Positions 1,591-10,021 of a DNA stretch of 21,246 bases are shown in pieces. The notes beneath the pieces are model-generated. The model saw only the letters and a list, made by a program, of their open reading frames with translations, was not told the origin of the DNA and did not search any database. The stretch comes from a virus (taxonomy: Duplodnaviria; Heunggongvirae; Uroviricota; Caudoviricetes). The stretch covers positions 1-21,246 of the IMG/VR virus record IMGVR_UViG_2534681772_000016; one strand, given 5' to 3'. A program made the translations under genes and the position numbers. The number at the start of each line of letters is the position of its first letter. The stretch's first letter is position 1.

Positions 1591-1897
1591 CTTCTACTCC
1601 GGCTTTTTTAGCAGCGAAGCGTTTGATAAGCGAACCAATCGAGTCAGTGCCGATGTAGCCGATGAACACGCTCGTTATATAAGCGAGATTGCTACTTAGT
1701 CCGGCGAAGTCGAGAATGTCACGAATGAACCAGGCGATAATGGCGCACATCGTTGCGTCGATTACTGTTTTTGTAAACGCACCGCCATTATATCTGCCGC
1801 GAAGGTACGCCATTGCAAACGCAAGGATTGCCCCGATGCCTTGTTCCTTTGCCGCGAGAATGGCGGCTAACAGGTCATGTTTTTCTGGCATCTTCAT
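1574..1897 (-). CDS. S: Holin S (class I, lambda S107/S105 dual-start motif MKMPEK)
   Basis: The 107-aa product [34 protein letters not shown]... is near-identical to lambda S. It contains hydrophobic transmembrane segments and sits upstream of R. Confidence 0.95.
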
Positions 1898-2302
1898 GTC
1901 TTACCCCCAATAAGGGGATTTGCTCTATTTAATTAGGAATAAGGTCGATTACTGATAGAACAAATCCAGGCTACTGTGTTTAGTAATCAGATTTGTTCGT
2001 GACCGATATGCACGGGCAAAACGGCATGAGGTTGTTAGCGCAGCCTCTTGCCACCCGCTTTCACGAAGGTCATGTGTAGAAGGCCGCAGCATAACTATCA
2101 CTGATGAATTCAGGATAGCCAGTGGCTACGGCTCAGTTTGGGTTGTGCTGTTTCTGGGCGGCGATGACGCCTGTACGCATTTGGTGATCCGGTTCTGCTT
2201 CCGGTATTCGCTTAATTCAGCACAACGGAAAGAGCACTGGCTAACCAGGCGCGCCGACTCTTCACGATTATCGACTCAATGCTCTTACCTGTTGTGCAAA
2301 CA

Positions 2303-2340
2303 AAAAAGCCACCGTTGCAACTTAAGAGTCACTAACGGCA
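2303..2340 (-). terminator. Putative tR'-like intrinsic terminator of the short late leader transcript
   Basis: On the minus strand, the hairpin ugccguu...aacggugg is followed by cuuuuuuguuug. It lies immediately upstream of the lambda-like late leader that runs to S. Confidence 0.4.
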
Positions 2341-2345
2341 GCTTA

Positions 2346-2382
2346 CCCTCTAATTATGGCTAAATGGCTAATTGCATGTCAA
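2346..2382 (-). promoter_or_regulatory. Putative late promoter pR' (-35 TTGACA, 18-bp spacer, -10 CATAAT) overlapping the last codons of Q; likely qut region
   Basis: On the minus strand TTGACA (2377-2382) lies within the final Q codons and CATAAT (2353-2358) lies just after the Q stop. This is the expected position for a Q-dependent late promoter. Confidence 0.45.
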
Positions 2383-2878
2383 GGTTTTTAACAGCAACAT
2401 GCTTAACTTTCTCAACACGTTTACGCATTTTGAAAGCATTTTGCATTGGCTGGTACAAAACAAATAACGACGCTTTCAGGATGTCGTCAATTTCGTTTCT
2501 ACAGGTTGCCAGTGAAGGTTTTCTCCATCCCTCGCCACCACGTCCACACATCTTGCGTGGCTTTGCAGTCGCGTGATAGTAGGATGCAATTGCTCGCTTA
2601 GATGAACCATGAGCGTAGTAGCTGAGGAGGATGCCAAAGGCTTTCTTGTCAATGCACATGACGGAATCGACGACCTGAGAAATCAACATTCCATCATCAT
2701 CATTGCACATTGGCCTTGTCATAACTCTTCCCGGCTCTACGCTCTCCATGAACTTCGCTATTACGCTGCTCATGCGCTTTTCCAGACGACCTGAATAAAC
2801 CCATGCGCCCCACAGTTCAAGCCAGCCATTCAGCCACTCATGCTGCTCTTTGGTGAGGTTTAGTTCTCTTATTCCCAT
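2360..2878 (-). CDS. Q: Late-gene antiterminator Q (non-lambda Q family, similar to phage 21/82 and QuuD types)
   Basis: The 172-aa product contains ..[37 protein letters not shown].. motifs recalled from Q-family antiterminators. It sits between the nin region and the late promoter and lysis genes. Confidence 0.75.
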
Positions 2879-3539
2879 GCGCCTTCTCCCTGTACCTGAA
2901 TCAATGTGAGGTTTCCGCAGAACACTGCGCCGGTATCGATATACATCTGGTTGGCAAACTTGAGTGGTTTCACTGCTGGCGTATGACCAAAGATGAACAT
3001 GTCCGCGCCTTTGATTTCTTTCACGATCCCGTCTTGTGAGTTGCTGATTCGTTCGCGATTCCAGATTACCTGCTGATGATCAACTGGCTTTCCGAACTCG
3101 TATTCGTCACAAGGATAATCGGCGTGGCAGATGACATATTTTTTCCTTTACTCACCAGTTCGATTATTAACGGAAGTTCATCTGCTTTATGGGCAAGAGC
3201 TTTAGCCAGAATTTCTTTGTCGTAATCGAGATTAAAGAACCAGCCACCGCCATTAAGCAGCCAGTGATTAACGTTTCCACGCTCTGATAAGCCATCAATC
3301 ATCATTTGCTCATGGTTTCCACGTACAGCTCTGAACCAGGGGAATGTGATTAATTCCATACATTCGACGTTCTCTGTACCGCGATCAACCAAATCGCCAA
3401 CCGAGATAAGCAGGTCTTTTTTGGTGTCGAATCCTATCGCCTCCAGTTTTTTCATCAGGTTCGTGTAGCATCCGTGCAGATCGCCAACTACCCAAATATT
3501 TCGGTATTTGCTGCCATCAATTCTTTCGTAATAGCGCAT
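2869..3539 (-). pseudogene. ninI: NinI-like Ser/Thr protein phosphatase (calcineurin-like metallophosphatase), frameshifted
   Basis: The N-terminal frame [28 protein letters not shown]...[19 protein letters not shown] matches lambda NinI. The C-terminal part [11 protein letters not shown]...[33 protein letters not shown] is in another frame. The break is at a T6 run (plus strand 3137-3142). Confidence 0.8.
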
Positions 3540-3723
3540 CTCTTTCACTCCATCCGCGATGAACCATAAGAACGTCGTTGACGATGGCGTGCATTTTCCC
3601 GTCTTTATCATCAACGTATTTTCTGACCGTGCCGCGACTACATTTCAGTCTGCGTGCTACTTCTGTCTGGTTTCCGTATGCTTCAACGAGCATGTCTGGA
3701 ATGGTTTTTACTGAGAACGTCAT
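3517..3723 (-). CDS. ninH: NinH
   Basis: The 68-aa product [39 protein letters not shown]... matches lambda NinH as recalled. Confidence 0.9.
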
Positions 3724-4331
3724 GCGGCCTCACTTCTGCTATTTCGCAGGTCTTTGAGTTTCTGCTGATACTCCGCCTTGATCGCCTTGCACTCTTCGAC
3801 AGTCCAGCGATGGCGGTTATGGTTTGATTCGATTTCGTCTACTGCTTCCTGCCCGATGCGATTAATCAGTTCGACGCGATACGGAACGAGATTTCCGCTT
3901 TTGTGCTGGTTGCACACCACGCATTGCTTGTGAATATTGCGTTCATCAAATCGGAGTTGAGGTGCCGCAGCAGTTGTCCGGTAATGTCCGGCATCCCACT
4001 GAGCAGACGTGAGCGTTCCGCACGAGATACATGGTAAGTCGCGGTCTCTTTCTCTGATGAAGGCGTTTACGGCTTGTTGGGCTTGTTTAATCCAGTAACT
4101 GCGGGGCTTTAAGGCGAGTTTTCGAATCTTAAGTTTATCTTTCTGTTTCTGCTCCTCTCGTCGTCGTTTCTTCTCTGCTGCCTTTTCCGCTTTTTCGCGT
4201 TCTTTGCTTCGTCGTTCGAGTGCTATCTTGGTTCCACACTCTGGAGAGCACCACCACTGATTGGCGAATGCAGGGTGAAACCATTCCCGACATTCATCGT
4301 TTTTACATCGTCTTCGCGCTGGTTTAGCCAT
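3720..4331 (-). CDS. ninG: NinG (Rap-family recombination-associated endonuclease)
   Basis: The 203-aa product [35 protein letters not shown]... has the Cys-rich pattern and length of lambda NinG. Confidence 0.9.
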
Positions 4332-4494
4332 CGTCTTCTTCCTCGTGCATCGAGCTATTCGGATCGCTCATCAGTTCTGCGCAGCAGTGCTCACACACGT
4401 GAACTTCCAGCACATGCAGCTTCTGACCGCAGTTAGCGCACGTTAAAGCTCGCTCGACGCTTTCTTGTTCGTAACTTCGATTTGGGTCAATCAC
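4324..4494 (-). CDS. ninF: NinF (GTG start)
   Basis: The 56-aa translation (V)[55 protein letters not shown] matches lambda NinF. It is shorter than the 60-aa cutoff of the ORF track. Confidence 0.8.
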
Positions 4495-4673
4495 CTTGTT
4501 TTCCTCGCACGTTCTCTAAGCCACCGGATATCCCACAGGTGAGCCGTGTAGTTGAAGGTTTTTACGTCAGATTCTTTTGGGATTGGCTTGCGTTTATTTC
4601 TGGAGCGTTTCGTTGGAAGGTATTTGCAGTTTTCACAGATGATGTCGGTGATACTTCGTCGCTGTCGTCTCAT
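4491..4673 (-). CDS. ninE: NinE
   Basis: The internal Met start gives [52 protein letters not shown]..., which matches lambda NinE (60 aa). Confidence 0.85.
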
Positions 4674-5200
4674 GCCGCCCTCCTGACGCGCTGCCCGATT
4701 GCCATCAATGCCGCTTTGGATACAGTAGTAAACATCCGTCGAGGACTGATGAACGGTCGCCAAATCAGCAGCATGGAGCCTTTGCTGTTTCCCTTCTTCT
4801 CCAGCCCTGTCGATGGTTCGATAAAATTAATCCGTCCATCAGTGATAATGCGAACTTCGTCGACACTCTCCAGAGCCTTGCTGAACCATCCGACTGACAT
4901 ATCCTCTGGCACAAGCATCACTACCGTCTGTCGCTGTTGTATACACTGCTCAGCGGCTTTTTCCACCCACGGCCTGATATTGCTGTACGGTGGGTTATTC
5001 CAGATTGCACCGTGGCTTACCCACTCAGAATTGAGCGCGTCGTCGGCCTCAGTTAGCCAGTGAGCACACAGAGCATTTTTGTCGCTCGCTGCCGAATCCA
5101 GCCAGAATCCAAACTCAATATCCAGTGCATCAAAAAGCCAAAGCGGCGTTTGCCAGCAGTCTCTAACTTCTTTTGGTGTTTCTGATTTATGCTTAATCAT
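4670..5200 (-). CDS. Phage Dam-like DNA N6-adenine methyltransferase
   Basis: The product contains [17 protein letters not shown] and NPPYS (the D/N-PP-Y catalytic motif). Its ATG overlaps the ninB stop (ATGA). It occupies the lambda ninC/ninD position. Confidence 0.7.
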
Positions 5201-5649
5201 GCAGCCTTTCCTTTTCGTTGTGACCATTCATACTCTCGCCGGGAGTCATCACTCCACCGCACGTTGCGCTCTGAGCCGAACCAGAACATGATTTCGATAA
5301 GCTCAGTCATGCTGGCCTTTCGCATTTTGCTGGTACGCACACCAAGCATGACAACGCCACCATCGATACCAGGAACACTTCGTTGCTCCAGTTTTTTGGT
5401 CTTAAGCCACAGGGCAGTGAACAGGTCTTTCCAGTCTTCCGGTGCCAGCCGTTGACCATGCCATAGCACCTGACGCGAAACATCGTTCAGCATCGGCCAC
5501 ATACGGTCATTCTGAGCTTTGCTGCGTTTGGGTTCTCTAACGTGGACTTCATGAGGTGACTTGTCGTCGATCGGAAGTGAGAGTATTGCGTCTATGGCGT
5601 TGTTTCTGATTGCTTCGTTGCGAAGCATGTATATTTGCTTCATTGTCAC
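5197..5649 (-). CDS. ninB: NinB (Orf-family recombination mediator)
   Basis: The 150-aa product has ..DVSRQVLWHGQRL..EDWKDLFTA..FGSERNVRWSDD.., matching the lambda NinB pattern. Confidence 0.8.
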   Translation of the reverse strand: MTMKQIYMLRNEAIRNNAIDAILSLPIDDKSPHEVHVREPKRSKAQNDRMWPMLNDVSRQVLWHGQRLAPEDWKDLFTALWLKTKKLEQRSVPGIDGGVVMLGVRTSKMRKASMTELIEIMFWFGSERNVRWSDDSRREYEWSQRKGKAA

Positions 5650-5841: not shown

Positions 5842-6057
5842 TCACTTTAAATTCAGGTTCCGGATTATTCTGTTGCGCTGAAACTCATTGTTGAGTTTGA
5901 ACAACCGCCGAAGAACACGGTCACGCGGATAGCGTCGTGCGGCAGGTGAATGCTCATACAACTCATCAATCGGCAAACTGGACGATGAACGATACTGATA
6001 CCAACGCACCAACTCTTCACGAAAATTAGCCCTGACAAGTTCAGCTATCGTACTCAT
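5842..6057 (-). CDS. Hypothetical protein (71 aa), in the position of lambda ren
   Basis: The ORF has an upstream GGAGG RBS. It lies between the tR2-like terminator and ninB. No family was recognised. Confidence 0.45.
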   Translation of the reverse strand: MSTIAELVRANFREELVRWYQYRSSSSLPIDELYEHSPAARRYPRDRVLRRLFKLNNEFQRNRIIRNLNLK

Positions 6058-6082
6058 TTCTTAAAGCCTCCAATTCCCTCTC

Positions 6083-6118
6083 CCCCAAATAAAAAGGCCT
6101 GCGATTACCAGCAGGCCT
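6083..6118 (-). terminator. Intrinsic terminator downstream of the replication genes (tR2-like position)
   Basis: On the minus strand, the perfect 8-bp stem aggccugc/gcaggccu with an 8-nt loop is followed by uuuuuauuug. It lies 30 bp after the helicase stop. Confidence 0.6.
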
Positions 6119-6147
6119 GTTACAAGCTCAGTGATGTAGATGGTCAT

Positions 6148-6915
6148 TTAATACTCCGTCACGTTTTCCTGTCGCCACGCCTCGTCATATTCCGACTTCG
6201 GCATATTGGCGATGTAGCTATATGGCGATCCTGATTCAAGTTGCAGGAACTGGTGCGATTGCTCGTCAAGGAACAACGGGACACCACCTTCCCAACCTTC
6301 GCCGTTACGTTGTTTTTCAAGCATCAAAACAGATGCCGGAGATGCCAGTAGCTGTTCGTCCTTCTCTGACATCTTTTCACCACTCTGAACTCTCTGTAAC
6401 GCTCTCTCGCGAGCCTTGTTACGCCAGATGATGAAAAGATTGTCTGTCAGGTCTGTTATCGCTCCAGAGCCTTTTACGTCCATTTTCCCGGTTGGTTTTT
6501 CTTCGCTGTCTCCTTTTCGCGAGTGAGTAACGAGAATGACGTGGGAGTTTGTTTTGTTTTTGAAGTCGCAAATCGAGTCAACAAACGCCTTCTGCCCGTT
6601 ATAGTCATCGTCGCCTATGCCACATTTCATCAGGCTGTCGATGATGAATAACTGGATCCCGTATCGGCGGCGAGCGTAGTCGAATATTTCGATCAGCCTG
6701 TCGGCTTTCGCCGTTCCGGTCAGACCAAACACCCAAAGTCTCTCGTCATAAAATTTAAATGCAGAGTCAATTTCCAGCACTGGCGGCATCTTGCAGCACG
6801 TCGCCTGACGGGTAAGTCGCTTAAGGAGAATGCCTGGCTTCAGCTCAAGTGACGCGATGCAGGTCTTCACACCCTGACGCATTGCCTCAAGTGCCATATG
6901 CCCGACAACCTCGGT
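6148..6915 (-). CDS. Replicative primase-helicase, C-extein: RecA-like helicase core of the T7 gp4/DnaB type
   Basis: After the intein terminal HN the product reads TEVVGHMALEAMRQ... It has a Walker B-like IQLFIIDSLMK and the motifs HVILVTHSRK and GSGAITDLTDNLFIIWR. Confidence 0.7.
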   Translation of the reverse strand, partial: TEVVGHMALEAMRQGVKTCIASLELKPGILLKRLTRQATCCKMPPVLEIDSAFKFYDERLWVFGLTGTAKADRLIEIFDYARRRYGIQLFIIDSLMKCGIGDDDYNGQKAFVDSICDFKNKTNSHVILVTHSRKGDSEEKPTGKMDVKGSGAITDLTDNLFIIWRNKARERALQRVQSGEKMSEKDEQLLASPASVLMLEKQRNGEGWEGGVPLFLDEQSHQFLQLESGSPYSYIANMPKSEYDEAWRQENVTEY

Positions 6916-7937
6916 GTTATGCGTTGCCACATATCCTCTGGTTACATACAGGTGGCGAGGGTGATCGACCATGATACACAAGCATTCTGCATTGCCGATT
7001 TTTTCAACATTCCTGACGAATACCCCACACCCCTCGAATCGATGCGCAGTTAATCTGCCATTGAGTCGTGGTGAACGGATGGCCTCCCTGATTTCCCTTG
7101 TCAGTCGTATCCTTGCCTCATATGAATCCATCCCATGCCGCTTATCGCCCTTGTATGTGTATGTCACGCCAGTTTTAACTCGCGTCCGGCATGAACCGCC
7201 GAGTGAGTTAACCAGTTGAACAACCCCATTACGCAGTTCTTCACTTGCTGAGGAAAAACAAGCGTTCCATCCTTCTCGACATAACCATCCGTTTCAAGCA
7301 GACCACACAGCATTCCTATACGCGTTGATTTGTTTGCGGAAAAAAACACACGAGGGATGAATTTGTTTTTTGCTGTGCACCCCATTAGTCCATAAACTCG
7401 CAGGGTCTCCATGAGTGGATTTACCTGACCACGCGCCGTTGATATCAGCCAGTCCTTACCATCTCCAGAGAAGTTGTAATCAGGCAGTTCAGCCTTCATA
7501 CGCTCGATCATGTATGGCTCGACGTTTGAAAACTTCACGCTCCCATTGCTAAGACTACCATCCCCGAGAAGGGAGCCGATAACCCATGCTAATGGCTCTG
7601 AGTGGTCGCCAAAGTCACCAGTTATTTCGGGTATCCTGACGCCATTTTTGTGCCTCTTCGTTTCACTCAACCGTTTCAGCTCGAAGGTGTCTATCACGCG
7701 GCGCTTCTCGCCTTTCGTGAATCCACGACTAGTGACCTCCCATAGGTGATCGCCTGCGCAATCAACATAACGACCATCTTCAAATGTGACTCGGTAAACA
7801 TCTCTAACACCCTGCGGGAATATCCCGGTGACAGTTGACGGATTGCCGTCTACTGATGCCACCTGATCGCCAATTTTTACATCCCCGTGAGTAGTCCATT
7901 CACCATTAGCGAGCAGAATTGGTTCATCAAGTGGACA
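6916..7937 (-). other. Intein (Hint domain with embedded LAGLIDADG homing-endonuclease motifs) inserted in the helicase P-loop; reading frame broken at an A5/T5 run (plus strand 7254-7258)
   Basis: N-terminal block CPLDEPILLANGEW..IGDQVASVDG..VYRVTFEDGRYVDCAGDHLWEV. Two LAGLIDADG motifs: LAWVIGSLLGDGSL and IGMLCGLLETDGYV. C-terminal block, in the other frame, CLCIMVDHPRHLYVTRGYVATHN followed by T. The extein-only product restores GHGK(A)T. Confidence 0.7.
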
Positions 7938-9053
7938 GGCTTTTCCGTGACCGTTCACACCATTGACCAGCGTCAACTCTGCCTCACGGAACTGGAATTT
8001 ATCTGCCAGAGATTCCCACGGTGGATTAAACAGATACTGCTGCTTGCCGTAGAAAGCGTTGATAGTGTCCTGGTAAAACTCTCGCGCACTGTAGAGTTCT
8101 TCAGGATCGAAGTAGGATGCCGTGCCGATGTACTGCCAGATTTCATCCTCGGTAACACCGTTCATCAGGCATTCGTTGATGTCTTTGTACGGCAGAGTAA
8201 CAAGACGGCAACGATGTTCACCGAGTCGGCTTGCGATTTCCCTTGCGGCTTCACGACCAACATCATCAACGTCCATCGAGATGAATATTTCCTCAAACCT
8301 GTCGAGGTTGTGATACTCAAACTCAATCCACTGTTGCTTAGCGCCTTTCCCGCCACCAAACGGCACGGATAACGCCGAGATGCCGTATTGCGCATAGCTC
8401 ATACAATCAATTTCGCCTTCGCAAAGTACAACCGCCCTCACGCCAGCGTCCAGAGCCTGCCATCCGAACAGACAAGGTTCGCAATCACCTTCTGCCATAA
8501 TGACTTTCTTCCCGTCCGGGCGCTCAGTGCTGATTCGCTTGACCTGCAACAACTCACCATCGCGTTTGTACGGAAGCACCAGTGCATCAAGTTCTCGTTC
8601 TCCATTCCACACCTTGCCGCTGACAACCTCGTAGCGCTTTACGACTTCTGGCGATATGCCACGCGATTGCAGGTACTCAAGATGGGATTCTGTTCTGGTA
8701 ACGTAGCGGGCGATTTTCTTGCGGTCAGGTCTGGAGAATTTCTTCTCACGTTTGGCATCGAAATGGTGATCGTCATCCTTGATTCCGAGAAAGGCTTTCG
8801 CTTCCTGCATAGCCTGATGCAGGTTAATTCCACGACATGCCATCCACAAATCAAGCATGTCACCGCCGTCTCCCTCAGCGAAATCAGCCCATTTTTTCTT
8901 GCCGCTAAGGTTGACCTTAAGGCTGTTTCCCTTGTCACCGTTGACGTTACCGGCAACCCACTCATGCCCCTCTTTCTTGCCGTTTGGCAACAGGTGCGGA
9001 GCCACCCTGTCAACCTGCGCCCAAAGCAGGTCGCTAAGTTCACTTGGCGTCAT
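7938..9053 (-). CDS. Replicative primase-helicase, N-extein: toprim primase domain plus the start of the helicase up to the Walker A GVNGHGK
   Basis: The product contains the toprim signatures VVLCEGEIDCMSYAQYG and FISMDVDDVGREAA and ends in ..LTLVNGVNGHGKA before the intein. A GAGGGA RBS precedes the ATG at 9053. Confidence 0.75.
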
Positions 9054-9160: not shown

Positions 9161-10021
9161 TCACCTGTCGAAAAACACGTAGCCAGTTTTCGATACGGTG
9201 ATTGCGGATGATGGTTTGGATTGTGGTTGAATAGTTTCTGGCTTCTCGTCGTTCCAGCGTTGACCGTTCAGGTAGCTCGATGGTAACAACCTGTCGAATC
9301 CGAACTGCTTACCATTCCTGCATGCGATGTCTTCTGCCAGCATCGTGGCAAACTCGCTTGCCGTACCCCTGGTAGTTTTACGCCATTCCCTGAACTGTGT
9401 TCTGAATGCCGAAGCCGCGTTTTTCTTCCCGGCTTTCCGCATGCCTGCACACCAGAATATTTCCTCGAATGCCTTGTCGGTTTCTTCGTGACGGTCAGAT
9501 GATTTTTCACACTCCGTCCGAACACTTTCGGACATAGTGTTTTTATTATTTCTTTTTTCTTTTGTAATAGTTTCTTTTGTGTGTCCCTGTTTTGGTGACA
9601 GCGCTGTCACCGTTTTGGTGACACTTTTTGTCACCAATGCAGTGACATTATCACCAGAGTAGTGACACCCTTCGATTTGCCATTCTTCGATGTTCTTGTT
9701 AGGCCCGATTTGCTGGCCTTCGCGAAGGATAACCTTCATCGCGATAAGCTCATTCTTGGCCTTGTTTACCTTCTGTCTTGGCAGCCTGGTAATTTGAGCT
9801 AACTGACTATCAGAAATGCGATCCATCTTTTTACCGTAGCCGTATGTTTTACGGCATATGGCGTGGGCAACCTTGCTCTGATTTTTCGTTAAATCTGCGC
9901 CGATAAGCTCTTCATACAGGGCATTTGCAAGACGGGTATAACCATCTTCAACTTCTGCCACACGACGCTCCACAGGCCGTTGTGAAGGCCTTAAATGTGT
10001 TACGGTTGCAAGATTACTCAT
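9161..10021 (-). CDS. Replication initiator, lambda O-like N-terminal iteron-binding domain with a divergent C-terminus
   Basis: The N-terminus ..[70 protein letters not shown] is similar to the lambda O N-domain as recalled. The iteron origin lies inside the gene, as in lambda O. Confidence 0.75.
9541..9668. repeat. Phage replication origin: about 4 iterons (GGTGACA/TGTCACC palindromes) plus an adjacent AT-rich region, inside the O-like gene
   Basis: The iterons are ggtgacagcgctgtcacc (9594-9611), ggtgacactttttgtcacc (9617-9635), gtgacattatcacc (9642-9655) and gtgacacc (about 9662-9669). A T-rich tract lies at 9541-9585. The order matches lambda ori relative to O. Confidence 0.7.

Follow-up and report, generated by a model that had tools for sequence, protein, structure and literature searches.

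Class 3 inteins are defined by the absence of a nucleophile at position 1, by a Trp(B:12)-Cys(F:4)-Thr(G:5) triplet (WCT) and, usually, by Thr or Ser at position +1, and in their splicing route the first attack is carried out by the Cys of block F (PMC2807308; PMC5050341; Beyer et al., 2020). Most such inteins are found in the P-loops of ATPases (Tori et al., 2010; PMC2807308). In this work, we analyzed a stretch of 21,246 nucleotides (nt) of viral DNA from the IMG/VR record IMGVR_UViG_2534681772_000016 (hereafter, the window), in which the primase-helicase gene of a lambdoid prophage harbors an insert that is very probably a mobile class 3 intein with a LAGLIDADG endonuclease, placed between Lys371 and the Thr of the Walker A motif (GxxxxGK/T; slashes mark junctions throughout). 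All the features described below lie on the minus strand of the window.

The closest described element is the intein in the P protein of the Shiga toxin (Stx) phage phi24B (vB_EcoP_24B), which was reported to start at residue 372 and to end at residue 702, with orthologues in a Shigella flexneri prophage (955/968 identical) and in phage Min27 (Smith et al., 2012; PMC3430580). Furthermore, the S. flexneri prophage inteins designated 'ShP-Sfv-2a ... Primase' in InBase were described as incomplete copies that end ahead of block F (Tori et al., 2010; PMC2807308). Both the element and its insertion site, as well as the non-canonical start, had thus been recorded previously, and a preliminary description of the window erred in stating that no such intein had been described in a lambdoid prophage helicase. 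An 'EP-Min27 Primase' intein is presumably also listed in InBase; full-text literature searches gave only the ShP-Sfv mention. To this record we add residue-exact boundaries (342 amino acids (aa), ending at residue 713 and not 702), a class 3 assignment by alignment of the WCT triplet, the detection of a LAGLIDADG endonuclease within the intein, a census in Escherichia coli, evidence for lateral spread, and the diagnosis of a frameshift in the window copy; the gain for the field is modest.

The window allele shares with the phi24B intein and its Min27 and S. flexneri copies the arrangement GHGK/ACPL...ATHN/TEVV within a 968-aa primase-helicase, a nucleotide identity of 96-98%, and the start at residue 372 (Smith et al., 2012). 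It differs in carrying the variant CPLDEPILLANGEW, closest to Klebsiella phage phiKp_30, whereas the Stx phages carry CPLNEPILLADGTW, and in a frameshift, from a run of six T to one of five, that belongs to the window allele; in addition, the end at 702 given by Smith et al. stands against 713 here, and neither a class nor an endonuclease is mentioned in that report. The DnaB intein of mycobacteriophage Bethlehem (MP-Be DnaB), the class 3 prototype, likewise displays no N-terminal nucleophile, the WCT triplet and Thr+1, and is hosted by a phage replicative helicase; compared by residue description and not by alignment, its layout of 341 aa with Cys320 (F:4), Thr339, His340 and Asn341 (PMC2807308) has as its counterpart 342 aa, Cys322, Thr340, His341 and Asn342 in the window intein. 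The hosts are different, an actinophage DnaB versus an enterobacterial-phage gp4-like primase-helicase, and the block F mechanism has been biochemically shown for MP-Be only. The solved class 3 inteins of mycobacterial DnaB, MchDnaB1 and MsmDnaB1 (6rix, 6riy and 6bs8), have a Cys124-His65-Thr143 triad plus Trp67 (Beyer et al., 2020), and share with the window intein this Cys-His-Thr triad plus Trp, providing its best solved matches at blocks A-B and F-G; however, they are mini-inteins of ~140 aa without an endonuclease, with ~30-35% identity in the splicing blocks. MchDnaB1 is inhibited by H2O2 (Beyer et al., 2020). Finally, PI-SceI, TliVMA and PI-PfuI combine, as the window intein does, a HINT splicing domain with a two-motif LAGLIDADG endonuclease, give weak sequence matches to the endonuclease part, and are the best fold matches of the structural model, but they are class 1 inteins (Cys1, Asp at F:4, Cys+1) of V-ATPase or ribonucleotide reductase hosts, with 13-18% identity and a different first step of splicing chemistry.

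Boundaries and splicing residues of the insert

The insert occupies positions 6916..7940, which match exactly the segment of 342 codons (Ala1 to Asn342) absent from intein-free orthologues; it measures 1025 nt in the window, one T being absent. These boundaries were read from splice junctions extracted from 15 sequences, both intein-carrying and intein-free, after a megablast comparison against phage genomes had distinguished records with a full-length match to the query from those with 66% coverage, in which ~1025 nt were absent. The intein-carrying set included phiKp_30, FDAARGOS_944, O157 WS4202, Min27, phi24B and Stx2_16002, plus the window's own contig. In the seven intein-free orthologues (mEp043, Sf101, 720R6, Stx2_EH2086, ES18, SEN22 and epsilon34) the junction reads GHGK/TEVVGH, with nucleotides ...GGTCACGGAAAA/ACGGAGGTTGTC, whereas the seven other intein-carrying alleles read GHGK/ACPL...ATHN/TEVVGH, with exactly 1026 nt between the Lys and Thr codons versus 1025 in the window. 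As 1026 nt lie between these codons, the insert comprises 342 codons, from ACPL to ATHN; in precursor numbering, the intein runs from Ala372 (residue 1) to Asn713, with Thr714 at +1. Excision of the insert yields, to the residue, the sequence of the seven intein-free orthologues, so that the canonical P-loop GHGK-TEVVGH is rebuilt, as the preliminary description had anticipated. The sequence features on which that description relied were also recovered by direct translation, namely the start GHGK-ACPLDEPILLANGEW...DCAGDHLW, the end CIMVDHPRHLYVTRGYVATHN followed by Thr, and the two LAGLIDADG-type motifs LLGDGSL and LLETDGYV.

The codons flanking the insert also differ between alleles. The Thr+1 codon (window 6913..6915) is ACC in 8/8 intein-carrying and ACG in 7/7 intein-free sequences, and the Lys-1 codon is AAA or AAG in the intein-carrying alleles. 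The split at Thr+1 may represent a co-conversion mark, a change in the homing site, or a protection of that site.

The insert displays the residue features of class 3 that can be read from a sequence, that is, Ala1, His65, Trp67, Cys322, Thr340, His341-Asn342 and Thr+1. Block A (ACPLDEPILLANG, 7902..7940) begins with the non-nucleophilic Ala1, followed by Cys2, a residue kept in the primase-helicase lineage only. Block B (GDHLWEV, 7734..7754) contains His65 (B:10) and Trp67 (B:12, the W of WCT), with the same numbers as His65 and Trp67 of MchDnaB1. Blocks F and G (AECLCIMVDHPRHLYVTRGYVATHN, 6916..6990) contain the Cys322 nucleophile (F:4), Thr340 (G:5), His341 and Asn342, and in the window do not share the reading frame of the N-terminal part; the C-terminus ...VATHN/T is kept in all alleles. 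His65, Trp67, Cys322, Thr340, His341, Asn342 and Thr+1 are conserved across alleles whose exteins (the host protein segments flanking the intein) are 58-88% identical. Among solved structures, the best phmmer matches were 6rix/6riy (MchDnaB1) and 6bs8 (MsmDnaB1), with E=6e-10, covering ~80 residues at the start of the insert and ~35 at its end and pairing aaHQW with HLW, vrCveV with clCimV and pTHN with aTHN; the nearest solved relatives of the insert are thus, by sequence, class 3 inteins.

In the frame-corrected insert, the Pfam family LAGLIDADG_3 matched intein residues 207-261 with E=1.9e-8, above its curated cut-off, Hom_end gave a weak score, and NCBIfam matches were confined to the intein portions of models for intein-containing DnaB, RecA, RNA polymerase A'' and Tes. 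The LAGLIDADG_3 match, the class 3 structures matching both ends and the exact restoration upon removal place the identity of the insert far beyond chance. Together with the existence of intein-free relatives, they bear out the proposal of the preliminary description that an intein with a LAGLIDADG homing endonuclease lies in the Walker A P-loop of the prophage primase-helicase.

A homologue search with the intein alone, which does not amount to a census, returned 5 proteins, including two sister inteins in other ATPases. One is located in a DnaB helicase (GARPKMGK/AMALE...) and is 51% identical, and the other in a PhoH-like ATPase (GPAGTGK/AQPL...CQCILI...VTHN/TML); both have Ala after GK and keep the W, C and T residues. 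Their residue 2 is Met or Gln, and Cys2 is therefore not a conserved catalytic residue. Two further proteins were observed: P0003, a free-standing 357-aa intein-like open reading frame (ORF) that looks like a degenerate or orphaned relative, its block B reading QLW, its F:4 residue being Arg and not Cys, and its C-terminus being THC; and P0005, a DnaB with a related intein that ends after block B and is fused to a phage Mu F-like domain (PF04233).

On this basis, the splicing chemistry that we infer for intact alleles would start with the attack of Cys322 (F:4) on the peptide bond between Lys371 and Ala1, with help from His65, Trp67 and Thr340, to form a block F thioester branch. The N-extein would then be transferred from this branch to the hydroxyl of Thr+1, cyclization of Asn342 would free the intein, and an O-to-N shift would yield GHGK-TEVVGH, identical to the intein-free protein; the predicted junction peptide of the ligated exteins is ...VNGVNGHGKTEVVGHMALEAMR. 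Splicing is probably functional in intact alleles, since all 79 E. coli copies found (see below) are full length and annotated as single coding sequences (CDSs), and since the insert splits the helicase P-loop in the isolated phages phi24B, Min27 and phiKp_30. Because the intein interrupts the P-loop of a replicative helicase, splicing would be a required step for the replication of Stx phages, and E. coli genetics would make this intein a convenient natural system for studies of class 3 splicing and intein homing.

Endonuclease domain, distribution and mobility

The two LAGLIDADG motifs lie in the middle of the insert. Motif 1 (WVIGSLLGDGSL, 7551..7586) contains Asp127, and its residues L124, L125, G126, D127 and G128 are invariant among the aligned relatives; motif 2 (IGMLCGLLETDGYV, 7278..7319) contains Asp218, with T217, D218 and G219 invariant, and falls within the LAGLIDADG_3 match. 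The fold was examined on an AlphaFold model of an intact Cronobacter ortholog (P0006), standing in for the frame-corrected window intein. The endonuclease core of this model (P0006 residues ~480-660) reached values of 84-93 in the predicted local distance difference test (pLDDT), and its best fold matches in the PDB were the TliVMA intein, PI-SceI and PI-PfuI, with E down to 6e-15; the middle of the insert is accordingly modeled as a two-motif LAGLIDADG endonuclease fold. As for its activity and target, we infer that this enzyme most likely cleaves alleles without the intein in the vicinity of GTGAACGGTCACGGAAAA/ACGGAGGTTGTCGGGCAT, the candidate target site in gene 55 of the intein-free mEp043 or Sf101 being GTGAACGGTCACGGAAAAACGGAGGTTGTCGGGCAT, and that repair of the cut allele would copy the intein in (homing).

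Of the 5,426 complete E. coli genomes in the census, 462 had the primase-helicase gene and 79 the intein, O157:H7 Stx2a prophages being among the carriers, and each of the 79 copies measured 1026 nt. Among phage records, the intein was found in 9/57, with carriers comprising the Stx2a phages Min27, phi24B, F403, F451, Xuzhou21 and Stx2_16002 and the P22-like Klebsiella phage phiKp_30, and with mEp043, Sf101, two other Stx2a phages and many Salmonella phages lacking it; the exteins of intein-free alleles are 98.6% identical. The 120 best protein-cluster representatives included 4 with the intein (3 full-length, one of them from Cronobacter malonaticus, and a partial one from S. flexneri), and the other 116 were intein-free proteins of 624-629 aa. 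Cluster members also came from Salmonella enterica and Shigella boydii, so that, besides E. coli, the intein is recorded from Salmonella, Shigella, Cronobacter and a Klebsiella phage. The 79 complete E. coli genomes and the S. enterica cluster members contradict the statement of Kelley et al. (2016; PMC5050341).

The diverged orthologues P0007 and P0009 share 82-84% identity with the window in the intein but only 58-68% in the exteins. As the intein is more conserved than the exteins in these diverged hosts, the comparison indicates that it has spread horizontally between diverged host genes, and homing would explain its patchy presence across lambdoid, P22-like and Stx phages. A foreign composition of the intein was considered and rejected, its GC content being 49.3% versus 50.0-51.6% in the exteins.

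State of the window copy and alternative readings

The coding strand of the window has a run of five T (A5 on the plus strand) at 7254..7258, after intein residue 228 and ten residues past the second LAGLIDADG motif, where eight intact relatives have six; T5 was found in no other allele examined. The endonuclease frame is therefore interrupted, and the shifted frame reaches a premature stop at 7164..7166, which ends a 629-aa product inside the endonuclease domain and leaves blocks F and G (6916..6990) and the entire C-extein out of frame. As written, this product is without the block F nucleophile and the C-terminal splice junction, and the helicase domain is without the P-loop Lys, so that the window copy cannot splice. 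The exact 629-aa protein occurs in one assembly only (GCA_000250335.2), as EHX60175.1, 'putative replication protein P [Escherichia coli DEC13B]'.

The frameshift marks either a pseudogene or a homopolymer sequencing error, and we lean slightly towards the former, in which a real deletion has left a decaying gene in a cryptic prophage, producing a 629-aa fragment of primase plus partial intein, with rare -1 slips on GUU UUU C restoring ...VFSSASE.... This is the sequence as given; the same gene has been independently inactivated in Shigella and in Min27, and such decay is common. Moreover, no recognizable Shine-Dalgarno sequence precedes the internal starts at 7167 and 7131, and the gene finder's ORF, of 274 aa, begins after Cys322, which also makes trans-splicing by a de facto split intein unlikely. 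On the other hand, there is a single lesion and no further stop or indel in ~2.9 kb, and the inactivation would hence be very recent. A genuine deletion would mean a dead gene and a prophage unable to provide a helicase of its own. Full-length precursor could conceivably arise in trace amounts, as tRNA-Phe slipping by -1 at the T5 run within 7254..7262 (GUU UUU CCU) would restore exactly the wild-type ...LVFSSASEELR; programmed frameshifting was rejected, given that the T5 run is short, no X XXY YYZ heptamer is present, and the relatives all simply have T6.

A miscall in the DEC13B draft is a plausible explanation too, if not the one that we favor, and would mean that the true gene encodes an intact 968-aa precursor like that of the O157:H7 Stx2a prophages. 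The T5 for T6 change in a homopolymer is the sole defect, with the rest of both halves open; the closest relative, phiKp_30, differs at 46 sites and yet has T6; the truncated protein comes from a single whole-genome shotgun draft assembly; and 79/79 copies from complete E. coli genomes have the full 1026 nt. Against a miscall stands the decay seen in prophage replication genes elsewhere, as in Min27, in S. flexneri (where the intein is broken at a different point) and in the O-like gene of FDAARGOS_944.

These other lesions were observed as follows. In Min27 (NC_010237.1, locus 1815..4723), two 1-nt insertions relative to O157 WS4202 are located in the C-extein, at gene positions ~2497 and 2510, for which reason the record lists two genes, 'replication protein P' of 2583 nt and 'DNA primase' of 336 nt. 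The S. flexneri copies (P0131, P0137 and P0127), which have GVHGHGK instead of GVNGHGK, read through the T run, and many are partial, reaching the contig edge immediately past ...GTLVFSSASEELR (...SEELR), while a 274-aa ORF for the C-terminal part (MVDHPRH...) is found apart from them on 194 contigs; their intein is possibly broken by an insertion sequence (IS) element, at a point other than that of the window. Such partial copies with a separate ORF fit the 'ShP-Sfv-2a ... Primase' inteins as described by Tori et al. (2010; PMC2807308). In E. coli FDAARGOS_944 (locus 6063..8266), the O-like initiator gene is split by ISEc20 (IS110 family), beside an intact intein-containing primase-helicase.

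With regard to the nature of the insert itself, the preliminary description had left its N-terminal boundary between Ala372 and Cys373. A class 1 intein starting at Cys373, acting through an N-S acyl shift of this residue and leaving GHGK-A-TEVVGH after splicing, is highly improbable. It is true that Cys or Ser is the first residue of most inteins, and that a Cys adjoins the junction here, the pair Ala1-Cys2 being kept in every primase-helicase allele, even in the diverged P0006, P0007 and P0009. Nevertheless, 7/7 intein-free orthologues have GHGKT without the Ala, the 342-codon insert includes the Ala codon, and GHGKAT, found in none of these orthologues, would destroy the GK[ST] consensus of Walker A; in addition, the DnaB and PhoH-like sister inteins keep Ala1 with Met or Gln at position 2, the full WCT triplet is present, and numbering from Ala gives His65 and Trp67 as in MchDnaB1. 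The start at Ala372, with its perfect GHGKT and class 3 character, was thus upheld, and the one at Cys373 was rejected. Just as improbable is a degenerate, non-splicing intein fixed as a domain of the mature protein, for which the view of Smith et al. (2012; PMC3430580) that the function awaits experimental determination can be adduced, given that the insert parts the Walker A Lys from the Thr and an unspliced protein could not bind ATP normally, that all the catalytic residues are kept across the diverged alleles, that isolated phages carry the insert in their helicase gene, and that most orthologues are without it.

The reading as a mobile class 3 intein is therefore retained, with several points weighing against it. 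Smith et al. (2012; PMC3430580) considered the function of the intein 'yet to be experimentally determined', and the window copy as written is incapable of any of the proposed steps. Hom_end_hint scored 25 bits, under its gathering score of 32 bits, and the HINT strands of the P0006 model were of moderate confidence (pLDDT about 55-80). The ACC/ACG split at Thr+1 shows a difference in the junction between alleles and is uninformative as to whether the endonuclease is still active. Lastly, the conserved Cys2 may have a role.

One such role would be that of a redox- or induction-sensitive switch, in which Cys2 of the Ala1-Cys2 pair forms a reversible disulfide with Cys322, on the model of the cysteine toggle in mycobacterial DnaBi1. 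We regard this as improbable; its basis is that Cys2 is kept in the primase-helicase lineage and absent from the sister inteins. DnaBi1 is said, in work attributed to Kelley and colleagues from 2018, to sit in the P-loop of DnaB, and MsmDnaBi1 is reportedly under redox control by a cysteine disulfide. If such a switch existed, helicase maturation, Stx-phage replication and amplification of the Shiga-toxin gene would depend on the oxidative state during SOS induction.

Host gene and its surroundings

The whole primase-helicase gene extends over 6148..9053, with an N-terminal primase/Toprim domain and a gp4/DnaB-type helicase domain. The 1-nt deletion splits it into two ORFs, 7164..9053 (629 aa) and 6148..7167 (339 aa), which overlap by a few bases, and its repair yields a 968-aa protein; by alignment, the window allele is one base shorter than the intact genes of E. 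coli FDAARGOS_944 and O157:H7 WS4202 (2907 nt). Both ORFs are to be read as one frameshifted, intein-containing primase-helicase gene, whose intein is masked by the RefSeq label 'toprim domain-containing protein'. The N-extein (aa 1-371, 7941..9053) ends in the first part of Walker A (GVNGHGK) and has a Pfam match to Toprim_2 with E=3e-12. The C-extein (255 aa plus stop, 6148..6915) begins with Thr+1, which completes Walker A (GHGK-T), and the spliced C-terminal sequence matches AAA_25 and DnaB_C with scores under their cut-offs; in a fold search, the exteins of the P0006 model resembled Twinkle, T7 gp4 and DnaG structures. The host protein is a T7 gp4/Twinkle-type bifunctional primase-helicase with a Toprim domain and a RecA-type (DnaB family) helicase domain bearing the Walker A motif. 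In phage vB_EcoP-720R6 (149..2048), the annotation divides the intein-free primase-helicase between CDSs of 1629 nt and 225 nt, which suggests another frameshift or sequencing error in this family.

The gene order on the source contig is N, cI, cro, cII, Phage_rep_O, primase-helicase, DUF7301, NinB, Dam, NinE, NinF and NinG, which is a standard lambdoid early region. According to the Pfam labels of the source contig, the neighbors in the window are the Phage_rep_O initiator (9161..10021), a DUF7301 protein (5842..6057), NinB (5197..5649) and a Dam-type methyltransferase (4670..5227). The closest phages overall are Sf101, IME10, 720R6, Sf6 and mEp043. Several Stx phages harbor an extra hypothetical gene of 270 nt directly 3' of the helicase, which is absent from the window.

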